Assembly: GCA_001805645.1 (NCBI GenBank)
Contig: MHGQ01000032.1
Span: forward strand, 64,267 to 128,266
Length of the DNA: 64,000 nucleotides
DNA from: Omnitrophica WOR_2 bacterium RIFCSPHIGHO2_02_FULL_50_17
GTDB lineage: Bacteria > Omnitrophota > Gorgyraeia > Zapsychrales > Zapsychraceae
Direction: 5' to 3'
Position numbers and translations under genes: made by a program. Each line of letters opens with the position of its first letter. Position 1 is the stretch's first letter. The notes below the pieces were generated by a model that was not told the origin of the DNA, did no database searches, and saw nothing but the letters and a program-made list of their open reading frames with translations. Shown piece by piece: positions 2,205 to 16,962 of this stretch.

Positions 2205-3770
2205 CTATTGGCTCATGGGAACTCCAAAAGACTTTTCTTGGGCGGATGCTTCAAAATCTTCATCTTCATGGCTCCAGAATCTTTCAACGAATTCTGCCTT
2301 TAATTCATTGAAAATCCTGTTGCCCTCTGGAGTATTCTCTTCAGCGCGCTTAATATCCGGCCAACGCGATTTCGGAAACTTTACATACAGATTAAATGTT
2401 CTTAAAAGACCCCTTATCTTCTCCCTCGGGAACTGTGGCATTTCCAGAAGAGAACCGCTCACAAAGATCGAATGAACAACGTCACTTTCTTTAGTGTAAC
2501 CGAGTTCGTTGCAAATGGTCCGCAAAGGAGTCCCGGCAAAAGGAGTGAATGCATAGGCATTACGATCGGCGGAATCGATCTGACGATTCAGTTCAATGGT
2601 ATCGAAAGCCAACTCATAAGTTTCGTGCGGAAAACCCATAACATTATTAACACTAAAAGGGATACCGACATCATTGAGGATCTTAAAATTTCGTATCATT
2701 AATTCATTGGAAACTACCCGTTTTAAAACCCGTTTCCGAAATTCTTCATTCCCATGCTCAACGCCGAAAGAAATACGTGCGCAGCCTAGCTCCTTTAGTT
2801 TTTTGAACCTCTCATAAATCACTGTCTCAACTCTTGTCTGACACCAGAAGGGCAAACCAATATTCTCATACATTTCAGCAAACTCTTCAAATTCTCCCTG
2901 CTTCCAAGAGAAAAAAGTGTCCGCCCAGAAATATAAATATTCGGCCTTCATTTCTTCTTTATAAAAGAGCAATTCCCTACGCATATTTTCAAAAGTCTTC
3001 CTGCGAAGGTAAGACTTTCCTTCTTCTTCCTGGTACAACTTCATCTGGGAGGGGGAATTACAGTAAGTACACGTGTATGGGCATCCACGATGCGTTTCCA
3101 CGGGAAACATTCGCCAAACCCGTCCGCCCATCGGTCTGTAAAATCTGGCTTCCTCAAAAATAGACATATCAATAAGCGGATTAGCATTCATATCAACCAT
3201 ACGCGTATTGTTTACCTTAATTGTCCCATCCTTTCGCTTCACCCAAAGATTAGGTATATCTTCATAAGATTGTCCGCTTTGCAGTCGTTCACACAATGTC
3301 CTAAGCGCATCCTCCCCTTCTCCTTTGCACACAAGGTCAATTTCAGGATAACTCAAAGCCAATTTTGGAGCGAAAGTAGCAAAAACACCCCCCAAAATAG
3401 TTAAAGGTTTATCTTTCCCCAATGTCCTTAAAAGCTTTATTCCCAACAAAAACATATCTTCAGTAGCCGACATCGCCAATAAATCCGGCCCGAATGCTCT
3501 AACCTCATTGTTGAAATCTGTGAAAACATTGGTTGTTTTTATAGTCACCTCGTTAGGCATTTTAAAAGGTCTGGCCATAAGTTTCTCCACTTTCATCTGA
3601 TCCGAATCGGCCTCAGCATGTTCGTCATCAAGTCGCTCATAATATGTCGTATCAAACAATTTAACCGTGAATCCTTGTTGTTTCAAAACTGCCGATAACA
3701 ATCCGATGGCAGGAGGCAACATGTTCATCCCCCTTAAATTTGGGTAAATTAGCATTACTTTAAGTGACAT
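2205..3770 (-). CDS. B12-binding (class B) radical SAM protein
   Basis: N-terminal Rossmann-like cobalamin-binding region (MLIYPNL…GLLSAVLKQQGFTVKLFD) followed by radical SAM CxxxCxxC cluster (HRGCPYTCTYC); 521 aa. Confidence 0.8.
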   Translation of the reverse strand: MSLKVMLIYPNLRGMNMLPPAIGLLSAVLKQQGFTVKLFDTTYYERLDDEHAEADSDQMKVEKLMARPFKMPNEVTIKTTNVFTDFNNEVRAFGPDLLAMSATEDMFLLGIKLLRTLGKDKPLTILGGVFATFAPKLALSYPEIDLVCKGEGEDALRTLCERLQSGQSYEDIPNLWVKRKDGTIKVNNTRMVDMNANPLIDMSIFEEARFYRPMGGRVWRMFPVETHRGCPYTCTYCNSPSQMKLYQEEEGKSYLRRKTFENMRRELLFYKEEMKAEYLYFWADTFFSWKQGEFEEFAEMYENIGLPFWCQTRVETVIYERFKKLKELGCARISFGVEHGNEEFRKRVLKRVVSNELMIRNFKILNDVGIPFSVNNVMGFPHETYELAFDTIELNRQIDSADRNAYAFTPFAGTPLRTICNELGYTKESDVVHSIFVSGSLLEMPQFPREKIRGLLRTFNLYVKFPKSRWPDIKRAEENTPEGNRIFNELKAEFVERFWSHEDEDFEASAQEKSFGVPMSQ

Positions 3771-3809
3771 AATAAGATTTCCTTTATTGAGATTATTTCA
3801 CCGTCCAGG

Positions 3810-3839
3810 ATAATACATGCGCCTAGATGACGAAGTAAA
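3810..3839 (-). promoter_or_regulatory. Possible sigma70-like internal promoter upstream of the radical SAM gene (-35 TTTACT, 18-nt spacer, -10 TATTAT on minus strand); RBS AAGGAA 9 nt before the ATG at 3770
   Basis: Read directly from the minus strand of the 222-bp gap at 3771-3992; weak match to consensus. Confidence 0.25.
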
Positions 3840-3849
3840 GAAAAGTCCT

Positions 3850-14668: not shown

Positions 14669-15762
14669 ATTGTCTCCTCCGATGTTCCTTTCTGTGCCCT
14701 GGCCACCTGTTTCAAGGCGCGCAGGAATTTTTTCATTTGTTCAACGTTGCCTATATTGATCCGGATACAGCCCGCGATGGGGGCAAACCCGAATCCCGCC
14801 TTTACCAAGATCTTCTTTCTTTTCAAGGCTTCGGCGACTTGTAAAGCCTTTTGAGCGGAGCCCGTATCAATAAGGACAAAATTGGCATAACTCTTAAAAT
14901 AAGGGAATCCCTCTTGCTGGAGTTGATTCTCAAGGTAACTTTTTCCTTCCATGGCCATTGCCACAATCTTCTTAACGATATTTGCGTTATCCAAGATAAA
15001 TTCAGCAAATTTGACAGCGAAGGCGTTGGTTTCATACATCGGCCTGACCTTTTGCAAACACGCAATGAGATCCTTGGACCCAATGGCGAAACCCAAACGG
15101 GCGGATGCCAGCCCCAACGCTTTTGAAAAAGTCCGCGTCACCACCAAGTTGGGGAATTTCTTGATCAATCCCGCGCAGGTTTTGGGATAAAAAACAAAGT
15201 ACGCTTCATCAATAAGAATAATGGCGTTGTATTGGCTAGCTACCTGGATAATTCGCTCTAAATCTTTTGCATCGATCACTGTGCCCGTTGGACTGTTGGG
15301 GTTGGCTATACAAACCAGTTTGGGACATTTTGTCTCGATCTTTTCTATGATCCTTTCTGCGGGCAAGGAAAGATCGCGGTCATAAAAAACCTCCTCAAGA
15401 TTAGCCTGGAACATCTTGGCATACACATAAAACATCGCGTAAGTCGGGCTCACCAGAACCACGGTATCCATCGGATTGACAAAAACCTCAAAAACCGCCT
15501 TAATGATGCCATCCGAACCCGCTCCGAGATAAATATTCTCCGGGGCACATTGCGCGTATCGGGCCGTCTTACTATAAAGCGATGTCACCTCAGGATAGGC
15601 CGAAAGCACACCGGCCGTAATATACCGACGAAACTTTGAAACCAGCCGGGAGGGCAAAGGGATAATATTCTCATTTTTGTCAAGGCGCAAGTAATTCAAA
15701 CGGATCTCTTGCGGGTTAGCAACCCGTTCCAGACGGGCAAGATGTGTTTTAAGGGGCAACAT
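14665..15762 (-). CDS. PLP-dependent aminotransferase, class I/II (HisC-like fold)
   Basis: LDKNENIIPLP near N-terminus and TFSKALGLASARLGFAIGS PLP-lysine motif typical of the HisC/CobD aminotransferase family. Confidence 0.8.
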   Translation of the reverse strand: MLPLKTHLARLERVANPQEIRLNYLRLDKNENIIPLPSRLVSKFRRYITAGVLSAYPEVTSLYSKTARYAQCAPENIYLGAGSDGIIKAVFEVFVNPMDTVVLVSPTYAMFYVYAKMFQANLEEVFYDRDLSLPAERIIEKIETKCPKLVCIANPNSPTGTVIDAKDLERIIQVASQYNAIILIDEAYFVFYPKTCAGLIKKFPNLVVTRTFSKALGLASARLGFAIGSKDLIACLQKVRPMYETNAFAVKFAEFILDNANIVKKIVAMAMEGKSYLENQLQQEGFPYFKSYANFVLIDTGSAQKALQVAEALKRKKILVKAGFGFAPIAGCIRINIGNVEQMKKFLRALKQVARAQKGTSEETI

Positions 15763-15780
15763 TTTTATATCTCCACTTTC

Positions 15781-16962
15781 TTAAGTGACAACACACCGGT
15801 TACAAGGGTATACCCCAATGCGCTGCTTATTAGCATGGGCCATGCGAAGTTTGTTGTATTTCTCACTGGACCATACCTCGGCAATGGATTTTTCTCCGAT
15901 ATTACCCACAGACAGCGTTGATTTGTAATCCGTCTCACATGGATTGACCTGGCCATTATACCAAATAAACATCCGGCGCCATAATTCTGAACAGGGAGTG
16001 GTAACCGTATTTTGTGGTGCTTGATAAATGTTGTCCAGGCCGTGAGAGGGATTATAGACGACAAAACATACCTGGTCGACAAGCTCCCCCCACAAATCAG
16101 CCATACTCGTCATTTCCTGTTCCGCGCTGAATTTAACACCGGAAACTCTGGTAATAATTTTGGAATCCGGATAATGTTTTTGTTTTATAGAATTAAACAT
16201 CCGGATATTTTTTAACACTTTTCCCAGGTTTCCCCGAACTCTTAATTGGCTGTATAAGGGTTCAGCGGCGGCATCAGCCGAAAATACTACCGTATTGACA
16301 CCTCCGGCCAGGATCGCATGGCAATGTTTTTCATTGAGCAAAGAGGCATTTGTGTTAATTTTCAATCCCAGGAACTTTCCTGCGCAATATTCCAGCATCT
16401 GGTCGATCTCCTTGCATGCCAAAGGTTCTCCACGCGATGCCAGAGAAATGAACTCCACATTCCCGATGATCTCATCCACAATTCTCTTGAACAAATCCAG
16501 GGTCATATACCCCATATGATCCCCCGACTTGTCGGTGAATTCCTTATCCCCCTGGTAACAAAATACACAGCGATAATTGCAGATTGAAGAAGGCTCAATC
16601 TGGAGATAAGGCGGATAACTTTCCAGCTTCCTCTGCCGGGGATAAACATCGTAACGATACCGATGAAAAATATGCCGGGGCACATCCCCATCATTGGTTC
16701 GTGAAAGCTCATCCGCTATGAAAGTTGTTATTTTAAAATTCGGCTTTGAGGCTTCATCTGCGATCAAGTCCTTGATCGCAGCACTGAGCACTTCCTTTTG
16801 GCCTGGCTGGACGGTCGAAGCCGAAAGATGCCTATTAACAAGCTCCACAACACGTTGTTTCTGGAAGTGTATATCTGATTGAAGAGACGAGAAAAAATTC
16901 TCAAAACTATGGTGTTTCTGATACGTCTCTGTTTCCATGTTATTTATCCTTGATATTGGCAA
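15781..16962 (-). CDS. Radical SAM protein with C-terminal SPASM/twitch-like Cys-rich domain
   Basis: CxxxCxxC (SSICNYRCVFC) core plus C-terminal CSELW…NPCE…YPCNRC cysteine cluster; ~120-aa N-terminal extension. Confidence 0.7.
   Translation of the reverse strand: MPISRINNMETETYQKHHSFENFFSSLQSDIHFQKQRVVELVNRHLSASTVQPGQKEVLSAAIKDLIADEASKPNFKITTFIADELSRTNDGDVPRHIFHRYRYDVYPRQRKLESYPPYLQIEPSSICNYRCVFCYQGDKEFTDKSGDHMGYMTLDLFKRIVDEIIGNVEFISLASRGEPLACKEIDQMLEYCAGKFLGLKINTNASLLNEKHCHAILAGGVNTVVFSADAAAEPLYSQLRVRGNLGKVLKNIRMFNSIKQKHYPDSKIITRVSGVKFSAEQEMTSMADLWGELVDQVCFVVYNPSHGLDNIYQAPQNTVTTPCSELWRRMFIWYNGQVNPCETDYKSTLSVGNIGEKSIAEVWSSEKYNKLRMAHANKQRIGVYPCNRCVVT

Follow-up and report, generated by a model that had tools for sequence, protein, structure and literature searches.

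What do three radical S-adenosylmethionine (SAM) enzymes do in a locus of sugar-modifying genes? We addressed this question in a window of 64 kb (the whole stretch of DNA that was analysed, 64,000 nucleotides) from Omnitrophica WOR_2 bacterium RIFCSPHIGHO2_02_FULL_50_17 (contig MHGQ01000032.1, positions 64,267 to 128,266). A first-pass annotation had described two cobalamin-dependent class B enzymes and one SPASM-type enzyme, embedded among sugar-modifying genes. All three radical SAM genes were found, on the minus strand and each with a CxxxCxxC motif:

2205-3770, minus strand: rSAM1, a radical SAM enzyme of 521 aa with a B12-binding domain (Pfam Radical_SAM 77.9 bits, B12-binding 39.9 bits)
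5530-6864, minus strand: rSAM2, an AprD4/HpnJ-like radical SAM enzyme of 444 aa counted from M31 (Radical_SAM 63.2 bits)
15781-16962, minus strand: a Twitch-type, BtrN-like radical SAM enzyme of 393 aa (Radical_SAM 53.7 bits, Pfam SPASM 52.7 bits)

These genes are indeed co-located with sugar genes, but they fall into two modules rather than one group, with the haloacid dehalogenase-type (HAD) phosphatase belonging with rSAM1 (module A) and a weakly matching short-chain dehydrogenase/reductase (SDR) with rSAM2 (module B). We put at roughly 0.5 the probability that positions 1225-20522, part of an envelope-glycan island, hold two nested sugar-tailoring modules, whose substrates and reactions we infer, all of them, from the domain content, family relationships, gene partnerships and phyletic spread reported here. 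The two cassettes, which are uncharacterised and occur in many phyla, appear to apply aminoglycoside-type C-methylation, radical deoxygenation and radical alcohol oxidation to envelope sugars.

All three enzymes exceed the Pfam gathering score of the Radical_SAM domain (PF04055, 29.5 bits), the CxxxCxxC motif is canonical in each, and the cysteine triads are invariant in the family alignments. The N-terminal region of rSAM1 also exceeds the gathering score of the B12-binding domain (PF02310; 39.9 vs. 32.1 bits). Alignment of 78 rSAM1 homologues, drawn from over 10 phyla, showed invariant cluster cysteines and conservation of both B12-domain hallmarks, GGVFxTFAP and C-x-GEGE. The AlphaFold (AF2) model of rSAM1 (pLDDT 88.7) has MgmA/QCMT, TsrM, OxsB, AprD4, TokK and CysS as its top folds in PDB, and is thus as close to cobalamin binders as to AprD4, a non-binder; in the family profile, the N-terminal region aligns with the cobalamin domains of OxsB, TokK and CysS. 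Given the B12 domain above its gathering score, the motifs, the fold and the profile alignment, rSAM1 has class B architecture, and it comes from a large, very conserved, unnamed family: we detected 2964 homologues at E <= 1e-10, the best 120 of which are 63-100% identical to it (119 of these 120 at 63-80%). No NCBIfam equivalog cut-off was reached by rSAM1, or nearly so (91.1 bits against the cut-off of 577.6 for the HpnJ model TIGR03471). The first-pass annotation had named GenK/Fom3, AprD4 and BtrN for comparison; AprD4 indeed proved to be the nearest characterised relative of rSAM2, and BtrN that of the third enzyme, while rSAM1 was found nearest to MgmA, TsrM, OxsB and TokK. With the class B methyltransferases as a class (MgmA/QCMT, TokK, CysS, TsrM, Fom3 and GenK), rSAM1 shares the B12 domain, the GG and GEGE motifs, the radical SAM core and the fold, but its identity to any solved member is at most 18%, and its setting is a surface-glycan locus rather than the biosynthesis of an antibiotic, a cofactor or a ribosomally synthesized and post-translationally modified peptide (RiPP). 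We regard rSAM1 as a candidate C-methyltransferase acting on a CMP-activated sugar of the ulosonic type.

We fetched 79 genome loci that encode relatives of rSAM1, referred to below by L numbers, and compared them with the window using tblastn and clustering of all neighbouring open reading frames (ORFs). These loci span more than 10 phyla and come from Omnitrophota, Planctomycetota (including Scalindua), KSB1, Latescibacterota, Nitrospirota, Nitrospinota, Elusimicrobia, Lentisphaeria, Acidimicrobiia, Gammaproteobacteria, Bdellovibrionota, Pelagibacterales, Nealsonbacteria and the archaeon Methanoregula. The homologues from SAR11 are 47-61% identical to rSAM1, have intact B12-domain motifs and are found in many single-cell and metagenome-assembled genomes (MAGs); the Pelagibacterales loci are L033, L038, L040, L058, L060-L062, L067-L073 and L078.

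The third enzyme had been called SPASM-type, and it does match the Pfam SPASM domain, but only four of its C-terminal cysteines, C324, C342, C387 and C390 (spacing 18/45/3), are conserved among 20 homologues, in addition to the invariant C128, C132 and C135, whereas a SPASM domain is expected to hold seven to eight, which bind two auxiliary clusters. Four conserved auxiliary cysteines, the arrangement seen in BtrN, identify it as a Twitch-type enzyme with one auxiliary [4Fe-4S] cluster and not a full SPASM protein. Its best match in PDB is BtrN, and C324 and C342, which lie inside the aligned stretch, coincide with cysteines in the auxiliary-cluster domain of BtrN, presumably ligands of that cluster. 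The N_Twi_rSAM model (NF033640) gave 57.9 bits, below its cut-off of 170, and the family has 2939 matches. BtrN is the 2-deoxy-scyllo-inosamine dehydrogenase of butirosin biosynthesis, itself a Twitch radical SAM enzyme, and the likeness extends to gene context, as the adjacent aminotransferase gene recalls the oxidise-then-transaminate logic of 2-deoxystreptamine synthesis. The Twitch enzyme differs from BtrN in its length of 393 aa, including an N-terminal extension of ~110 aa, in a match of only 51 bits and in scoring as Pfam SPASM; the aminotransferase beside it is HisC-like, and the setting is a CMP-sugar cassette. It is a candidate anaerobic sugar alcohol dehydrogenase.

In the window, rSAM1 and the Twitch enzyme belong to module A, which comprises the genes for CTP250, FkbM, the Twitch enzyme, a HisC-like aminotransferase, SDR298, a LIC13510-type transferase, the HAD phosphatase, rSAM1 and GT2a. 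The annotated HAD, FkbM and cytidylyltransferase genes are all present, as is the weak SDR of module B at 4655-5575. Listed with them below are the gap upstream of rSAM1 and a gene fusion located elsewhere in the island:

1225-2163, minus strand: GT2a, a glycosyltransferase and the last module A gene in the locus (Pfam Glycos_transf_2 114 bits)
3771-3992, minus strand: intergenic region of 222 nt with two GC-rich hairpins and a non-conserved ORF of 52 aa (read from the sequence; no Rfam match)
3993-4661, minus strand: HAD-IA phosphatase (Pfam HAD_2 69 bits; orthologue cluster in 19 rSAM1 loci)
11794-13764, minus strand: TIGR04326 (LIC13510-type) surface-carbohydrate protein, the putative sugar transferase of module A (TIGR04326 249.3 bits vs. 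a cut-off of 250)
13772-14668, minus strand: SDR298, a GalE-like NDP/CMP-sugar epimerase or dehydratase (Pfam Epimerase 138.8 bits)
14665-15762, minus strand: HisC-like class I/II aminotransferase, adjoining the Twitch enzyme (Pfam Aminotran_1_2 168 bits)
16940-17977, minus strand: FkbM-family SAM methyltransferase (Pfam Methyltransf_21 65 bits)
17974-18726, minus strand: CTP250, a divergent NeuA/PseF-like cytidylyltransferase of the CMP-ulosonic acid synthetase type (Pfam CTP_transf_3)
48732-50516, minus strand: fusion of CTP_transf_3 and a D-2-hydroxyacid dehydrogenase (PseF 143.9 bits, phosphoglycerate dehydrogenase (PGDH) 237.6 bits, both below cut-off)

The core genes of module A recur as varying subsets in more than 10 phyla, including Methanoregula. 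The most common neighbour of rSAM1 is SDR298 (27 loci, up to 72% identity; nearest PDB entries 4-epimerases), followed in the set that we call Type A by a 2-hydroxyacid dehydrogenase (22 loci), the Twitch enzyme (20 loci, two sub-families), CTP250 (19 loci) and the HAD phosphatase (19 loci); a SAM methyltransferase (FkbM, MT23 or another) and a transferase-like protein of 600-700 aa also belong to the Type A cassette, and in L008 the whole set is contiguous. Orthologues of CTP250 are 54-69% identical and occur in 18-19 loci; the window protein scored 69.8 bits with the PseF model (cut-off 205.7) and has CMP-Neu5Ac synthetases (NeuA) as its nearest PDB entries. Homologues of the TIGR04326 protein, which also gave a weak match to the BFO_1060 glycosyltransferase, are found in 9 rSAM1 loci, and GT2a orthologues (43-50% identical) lie downstream of rSAM1 in L008, L037, L025 and L083. 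The aminotransferase scored 272 bits with the hisC model, slightly under the cut-off of 276.55. The 2-hydroxyacid dehydrogenase of 22 loci is a stand-alone PGDH-like protein, 37-49% identical to the C-terminal domain of the window fusion, and by this similarity the C-terminal half of the fusion is the counterpart, in the window genome, of the dehydrogenase in the cassettes.

The gene for rSAM1 lies beside a Twitch homologue in 19 loci other than the window (20 with it) and near orthologues of rSAM2 in L037 and L083, which argues that the co-location of the radical SAM genes is not due to chance; at least 18 long contigs, paired by their equal lengths, are apparently common to the top matches of rSAM1 and of the Twitch enzyme. 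In the 20 Twitch loci, the cassette contains either an aminotransferase (11) or an adh_short SDR (7), never both (0), with neither in the remaining 2. For the 46 rSAM1 loci that reach 14 kb or more, we counted cytidylyltransferase and synthase genes within 10 kb: a CTP_transf_3 gene is present in 33, and a NeuB synthase or an HpcH/HMGL aldolase in 22; the window itself has NeuB1 ~9 kb upstream.

In a second cassette type, Type B, part of the Type A set is replaced by an HpcH aldolase, an HMGL-like/MptE-like fusion and a KdsB-like cytidylyltransferase. The rSAM1 genes of Pelagibacterales belong to this type, the SAR11 homologues adjoining the HpcH aldolase and the KdsB-like gene. The fusion of an HMGL-like aldolase with an MptE-like (Maf/DUF115-type) domain was observed in the Type B cassettes of L021, L039, L052 and L080 (574-607 aa), next to the HpcH aldolase, a ferredoxin-like protein and the KdsB-like cytidylyltransferase.

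Module A would make and transfer a CMP-activated acidic sugar of the 2-ulosonic type. The NeuA-like CTP250 would activate this sugar as its CMP derivative, the BtrN-like Twitch enzyme would convert a secondary alcohol into a ketone independently of NAD and O2, and the HisC-like aminotransferase would turn the ketone into an amine; in the sister cassettes, re-reduction by the SDR would instead give an epimer, as with ElaA/ElaC. FkbM would add an O- or N-methyl group, rSAM1 would place a methyl group on an unactivated carbon through methylcobalamin (by analogy with Fom3, its substrate may be CMP-conjugated), and the LIC13510-type protein would transfer the product. The 2-hydroxyacid dehydrogenase would be supplied from elsewhere in the island as the cytidylyltransferase fusion, which links those two steps; we know of no characterised fusion of a PseF-like cytidylyltransferase with a PGDH-like dehydrogenase. 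This fusion, together with 14 of the large loci that have a cytidylyltransferase gene and no NeuB or aldolase gene within 10 kb, raises the possibility that a phospho-aldonic acid is oxidised to the 2-keto acid and dephosphorylated by the HAD phosphatase.

Part of this logic is known from recent structural work on ElaABC, which epimerises CMP-legionaminic acid at C8 in A. baumannii KL49 and V. vulnificus through oxidation followed by SDR re-reduction (PMC13656337). Module A and its relatives resemble that system in having a CTP-transferase, a hydroxyl-to-ketone step and face-selective re-reduction by an SDR, seven sister cassettes pairing the Twitch enzyme with an adh_short SDR; they differ in that the oxidase is a radical SAM enzyme rather than the Gfo/Idh/MocA protein of the ElaA system, and in that the window has an aminotransferase in place of the SDR. 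An ElaC-like identity for the adh_short SDR of the cassettes was considered and dropped, as the protein gave no specific PDB match.

The second predicted class B enzyme, rSAM2, did not bear out that assignment. Its PF02310 score of 21.1 bits lies below the gathering score of 32.1, a precomputed PF02310 match is absent from most of its homologues, and the GG motif is lost in the family, which has V-G-S / G-x-F instead. The rSAM2 family is small (163 matches). Its ORF spans 5530-6954, the true start is probably M31 (at 6864), and a 100% identical protein of 444 aa (P0121) exists. rSAM1 and rSAM2 are homologous from end to end (hhalign E 1e-39, 24% identity), with an insertion of ~45 residues in the N-terminal domain of rSAM1 relative to the rSAM2 family.

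Structure comparison places rSAM2 closest to AprD4. With the AF2 model of rSAM2 (pLDDT 93.7), Foldseek returned AprD4 at E 1.9e-27 (TM-score 0.79/0.78) vs. E 4e-17 (TM-score 0.57) for the runner-up, and the family profile matched AprD4 in PDB over nearly its full length (190.8 bits vs. 84.5 bits for the runner-up). rSAM2 thus shares its full-length fold and architecture with AprD4, and is closer to it than to other structures, with the radical SAM barrel preceded by a Rossmann-like domain at the N terminus that fails to score as a B12 binder; sequence identity is ~19%. Against the AprD4 family model NF033070 it scored 69.2 bits, and since this is below the cut-off of 500 it is not a member of the AprD4 equivalog family. 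Its best NCBIfam model is HpnJ (TIGR03471), where 120.7 bits likewise fall short of the cut-off of 577.6. AprD4 does not bind cobalamin (review, PMC12931638). We conclude that rSAM2 is not demonstrably class B and is probably an AprD4/HpnJ-like, cobalamin-independent enzyme, a candidate for a radical sugar dehydratase (deoxygenation) or a rearrangement enzyme. AprD4 acts together with the reductase AprD3 in the deoxygenation of paromamine and was, as of 2017, the only radical SAM dehydratase described (PMC5461906).

The genes accompanying rSAM2 define module B, which in the window is split by an insertion sequence:

4655-5575, minus strand: SDRw, an extended SDR with a weak Epimerase match (Pfam Epimerase 44.9 bits; GxxGxxG and YxxxK in the translation)
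6911-7939, minus strand: IS110-family transposase between the SDR-GT2 gene and rSAM2 (Pfam DEDD_Tnp_IS110 and Transposase_20)
8165-10030, minus strand: fusion of an SDR (NDP-sugar 4,6-dehydratase/decarboxylase-like) with a family 2 glycosyltransferase (GT2; polyprenyl-phosphate sugar synthase-like) (Pfam Epimerase/GDP_Man_Dehyd and Glycos_transf_2)
10036-11790, minus strand: polytopic, GT-C-like membrane protein with at least 7 transmembrane segments and a C-terminal soluble domain (hydropathy scan)

Both in the window and in L037, a Type A cassette encloses the module (GT-C-like membrane protein, SDR-GT2 fusion, rSAM2 and SDRw), whose lineages are Omnitrophota, Planctomycetota and Kiritimatiellia. 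Directly downstream of the rSAM2 orthologues in L037, L089, L091, L092 and L093 we found orthologues of SDRw (43-48% identical), and the rSAM2-SDRw pair, accompanied by a small GT2 and a polytopic membrane protein, is kept in six lineages. An orthologue of the SDR-GT2 fusion adjoins rSAM2 in L037 (66% identical), a small DPM1/AglJ-like GT2 does so in L089, L091 and L092, and the fusion itself has weak NCBIfam matches to AglJ, dolichyl-P hexose transferase and PpgS. Orthologues of the membrane protein are 45-48% identical in L037 and L093, and a PMT_2 protein occupies the equivalent place in L091.

In apramycin biosynthesis, AprD4 and AprD3 carry out C3'-deoxygenation as a radical SAM 1,2-diol dehydratase and its NADPH reductase. 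The gene after rSAM2 is always that of an NAD(P)-type SDR, which we liken to AprD3 by role and position, and SDRw would accordingly be a ketoreductase with an AprD3-like role. Module B differs from the AprD4/AprD3 system in belonging to a surface-glycan unit with a polyprenyl-phosphate GT2 and a GT-C protein, and not to an aminoglycoside cluster. The DPM1/AglJ-like GT2 and the polytopic GT-C-like protein also recall GtrA/GtrB/GtrX and ArnC/ArnT-type systems, with the differences that the GT2 of module B is fused to an SDR domain and that no flippase was identified in the module; we know of no radical SAM enzyme in such three-component periplasmic glycan modification systems. Module B would be a periplasmic glycan-modification unit that uses a polyprenyl-phosphate-linked sugar: the GT2 would load the sugar on polyprenyl phosphate, rSAM2 would dehydrate a vicinal diol by radical chemistry and SDRw would reduce the resulting ketone, a net deoxygenation as in AprD4/AprD3, and the GT-C-like protein would attach the sugar to the glycan on the outer side of the membrane.

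In L091 and L092, the rSAM2-type modules are followed by pairs of E1_dh/transketolase-like (thiamine-dependent) genes and further SDRs, and in L091 and L093 additional, unrelated B12-radical SAM genes adjoin the module; these neighbours suggest branched-chain or multiply tailored sugars.

That radical enzymes tailor sugars in a surface-glycan locus, as first proposed, is supported by the gene context, by its recurrence in many phyla and by the nearest relatives of the three enzymes, from which we infer the chemistry. The following observations weigh against the pathways set out for the two modules. No enzyme reaches a curated cut-off, so that the functional transfers rest on distant homology. 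For rSAM2, the higher score of the HpnJ model (120.7 bits vs. 69 bits for AprD4) makes ring contraction as compatible with the data as dehydration, and in the alignment its Cx3Cx2C motif stands opposite Cx3Cx3C in AprD4. The 14 loci with neither NeuB nor aldolase leave the origin of the ulosonic acid unexplained, and the usual substrates of HisC-like aminotransferases are small phosphorylated keto compounds, not sugar rings. rSAM1 has no constant adjacent partner across the loci, and gene order is fluid. B12-radical SAM enzymes are also known to catalyse reactions other than methylation (OxsB, BchE). To our knowledge, Pelagibacterales (SAR11) lack cobalamin-dependent metabolism, in which case rSAM1 would be unexpected there. 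Finally, two perfect GC-rich hairpins, CCACCTGCTAAGCAGGTGG and CCACCACTTTTAGTGGTGG, which might serve as a terminator or an attenuator or be a repeat, occur in the gap of 222 nt upstream of rSAM1, but scans of the whole window and of this gap found no Rfam element; a cobalamin riboswitch upstream of rSAM1 was rejected for this reason.

An alternative is that rSAM1 does not methylate but forms a C-C bond to build a higher-carbon sugar acid, contracts a ring or epimerises its substrate. The 14 Type A loci that have a cytidylyltransferase and leave the C-C step unfilled are consistent with such a role, as are the presence of OxsB and of BchE/HpnJ-like models among the nearest relatives and the conventional SAM methyltransferase that nearly every cassette already contains. 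We nevertheless consider it unlikely: most characterised class B enzymes are methyltransferases, including the closest solved ones (MgmA/QCMT, TsrM, TokK and CysS), and Type B cassettes hold aldolases yet keep rSAM1.

Similarly, rSAM2 might be an HpnJ-type enzyme that rearranges or contracts the ring of an (amino)sugar to a carbocyclic or cyclitol-like residue, with the partner SDR processing the product. HpnJ is its top curated model, the match covering residues 102-470, the best NCBIfam match of SDRw is the hopanoid-associated epimerase HpnA (weak, 39 bits), and the constant GT2 neighbour of rSAM2 is paralleled by HpnI, which accompanies HpnJ in the hpn cluster. The HpnJ score is far under its cut-off, however, the window has no hopanoid genes, and AprD4 is matched over nearly the full length at a TM-score of 0.79, although this structure comparison is one-sided, given that no HpnJ structure exists; on balance, we judge the HpnJ-type role improbable and favour deoxygenation. 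A hopanoid-pathway reading of module B as a whole was set aside, as hopanoid genes are absent from the window.

It is also conceivable, but quite improbable in our view, that the dehydrogenase, the aminotransferase and the HAD phosphatase together make a C3/C4 serine-, serinol- or glycerate-like substituent, and that the radical SAM enzymes tailor this substituent and not the ring. Cj1435-Cj1437 of the Campylobacter capsule may offer a parallel for such a route, and its logic would resemble SerA/SerC/SerB and HisC/HisB: the dehydrogenase is PGDH-like (237.6 bits), the nearest relatives of the aminotransferase are histidinol-phosphate aminotransferases and CobD-like enzymes, and the HAD protein is of the small-molecule phosphatase type. 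On the other hand, the adh_short SDR that stands in place of the aminotransferase in 7 cassettes is more readily explained by a ketone on the ring than by an amino-acid route, the cassette showed no gene for an amide ligase or an ATP-grasp protein, and the dehydrogenase is fused to a cytidylyltransferase. That the three radical SAM enzymes form a RiPP or cofactor-maturation cluster merely located inside a glycan locus was rejected as very improbable, even though SPASM/Twitch and B12-radical SAM enzymes are common RiPP maturases and weak NCBIfam matches to ApyD, rSAM_ocin_1 and a tungsten-cofactor maturase were found, because, in agreement with the first-pass annotation, the gaps of 2164-15780 (each at most 225 nt) hold no conserved precursor peptide and only one small ORF (52 aa, 3798-3956), which is confined to contigs of the same strain, while peptidase, leader-binding and RiPP-type transporter genes are absent and the conserved neighbours in more than 10 phyla are all sugar enzymes.

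Aminoglycoside, fosfomycin and nucleoside antibiotic pathways are well-known settings of sugar tailoring by radical SAM enzymes. Our full-text literature searches found nothing relevant that joins radical SAM enzymes with nonulosonic acids, O-antigen, S-layer glycans or nucleotide-sugar (C-)methylation, and a paper on Tannerella gives no enzyme for the N-glyceroyl group. In view of these searches, the kind of chemistry proposed here is known, whereas the families, their partnerships with a CMP-sugar synthetase and with polyprenyl-phosphate/GT-C genes, and their broad distribution among the envelope-glycan loci of uncultured phyla appear undescribed. If the two modules act as proposed, C-methyl-branched, radically deoxygenated or anaerobically aminated acidic sugars, not described so far, would occur in the surface glycans of many little-known lineages, among them Omnitrophota, Planctomycetota including Scalindua, Nitrospirota, Elusimicrobia, Methanoregula and Pelagibacterales. 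For AprD4-like and BtrN-like enzymes, this would be the first physiological role beyond the making of antibiotics; a B12-radical SAM family of ~3000 detected members, highly conserved and so far unnamed, would be defined, and the envelope structure of environmental microbes would be tied to vitamin B12 availability. Being compact and sufficiently well defined, the cassettes lend themselves to reconstitution in vitro. A broader proposal, which we advance tentatively and with less confidence than the two modules themselves, is that radical SAM sugar chemistry described until now almost exclusively in aminoglycoside and phosphonate antibiotic pathways (AprD4-type radical deoxygenation, BtrN-type anaerobic alcohol oxidation with subsequent amination or epimerisation, and B12-dependent C-methylation) is widespread and ancestral in the primary envelope-glycan synthesis of uncultured anaerobes, methanogens and SAR11, and may include, in module A, a synthase-independent route leading to a new class of sugars, in which the PGDH-like dehydrogenase and the HAD phosphatase would convert a phospho-aldonic acid to a 2-ulosonic acid ahead of CMP-activation, amination and C-methylation.

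The IS110 element that splits module B is a single element in the intergenic interval 6865-8164. L037 lacks it at the equivalent junction, and two assemblies made independently, L086 and L088, have it in exactly the same place. One metagenome contig, the ENA contig behind L001, ends within the element, but an independent assembly of 88 kb shows 99.99% identity through the junction, so that the layout is not an assembly artefact and a chimera at this point is ruled out. The insertion may be polar on rSAM2, SDRw, the HAD phosphatase and rSAM1. Identical copies of the window proteins are found in Omnitrophica WOR_2 MAGs and in several metagenome assemblies.

The window as a whole is a single minus-strand array of ~60 ORFs (GC 0.40-0.51), and Pfam and NCBIfam scans showed that a very large envelope-glycan island fills it. 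The island encodes two NeuB-type synthases, a NeuC-type epimerase and an acetamidino-forming set of WbuX with a HisF/HisH fusion; four CTP_transf_3 cytidylyltransferases, one of them the dehydrogenase fusion; LIC12162, LIC13510 and PFTS-motif 'surface carbohydrate' proteins; several SDR and Gfo/Idh/MocA oxidoreductases; carbamoyl-, acyl-, formyl- and methyltransferases; an adenosine 5'-phosphosulfate (APS) kinase; an FkbH-acyl carrier protein (ACP)-MBOAT module; an ABC exporter; and, at the left edge, a Wzy_C-like membrane protein. Two further features concern export and cobalamin:

18723-20522, minus strand: ABC exporter with fused transmembrane and nucleotide-binding domains, HepA/MsbA/PglK-like (Pfam ABC_membrane and ABC_tran; NCBIfam matches)
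63741-64000, minus strand: 3' end of cobS (adenosylcobinamide-GDP ribazoletransferase), cut by the right window edge (C-terminal regions of TIGR00317 and NF001277, E 1e-9 to 5e-11)

ABC exporters recur beside rSAM1 and LIC12162-type genes in other loci. The cobS fragment lies, as annotated, at the window edge (~63740-64000), and encodes the last 87 aa (TIGR00317 positions 159-240 of 241, E 1e-9); it had been taken to show that the organism makes cobalamin, and it does indicate the last assembly or salvage step, but not synthesis de novo.

An APS kinase (232 bits) is encoded at 39253-39819 (minus strand), and no sulfate adenylyltransferase or sulfotransferase was detected within the window; the kinase could serve glycan sulfation through genes elsewhere, or it might be a Cj1415-like kinase acting on a cytidine diphosphoramidate-type donor. 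Positions 21235-30620 (minus strand) hold a complete-looking acetamidino-nonulosonate sub-cluster of WbuX (351 bits), a polysaccharide deacetylase, a formyltransferase, the HisF/HisH fusion, NeuC (395 bits), an SDR, NeuB (384 bits, slightly below the NeuB cut-off) and a LIC12162-family transferase (433 bits), with the PseF-like cytidylyltransferase of this sub-cluster at 20522-21280. At 52504-58193 (minus strand) we observed a Dlt/AlgI-like O-acylation module with an unusual loader, in the order FkbH (TIGR01686, 304 bits), an ACP-like ORF of 100 aa with a 'GWDSL' serine motif (56155-56457), a MaoC/hotdog-like ORF of 137 aa (55737-56150), an adh_short SDR, MBOAT and a weakly DltD-like protein; this module reads like one that moves a C3 acyl group derived from glyceryl-ACP onto an extracytoplasmic glycan.

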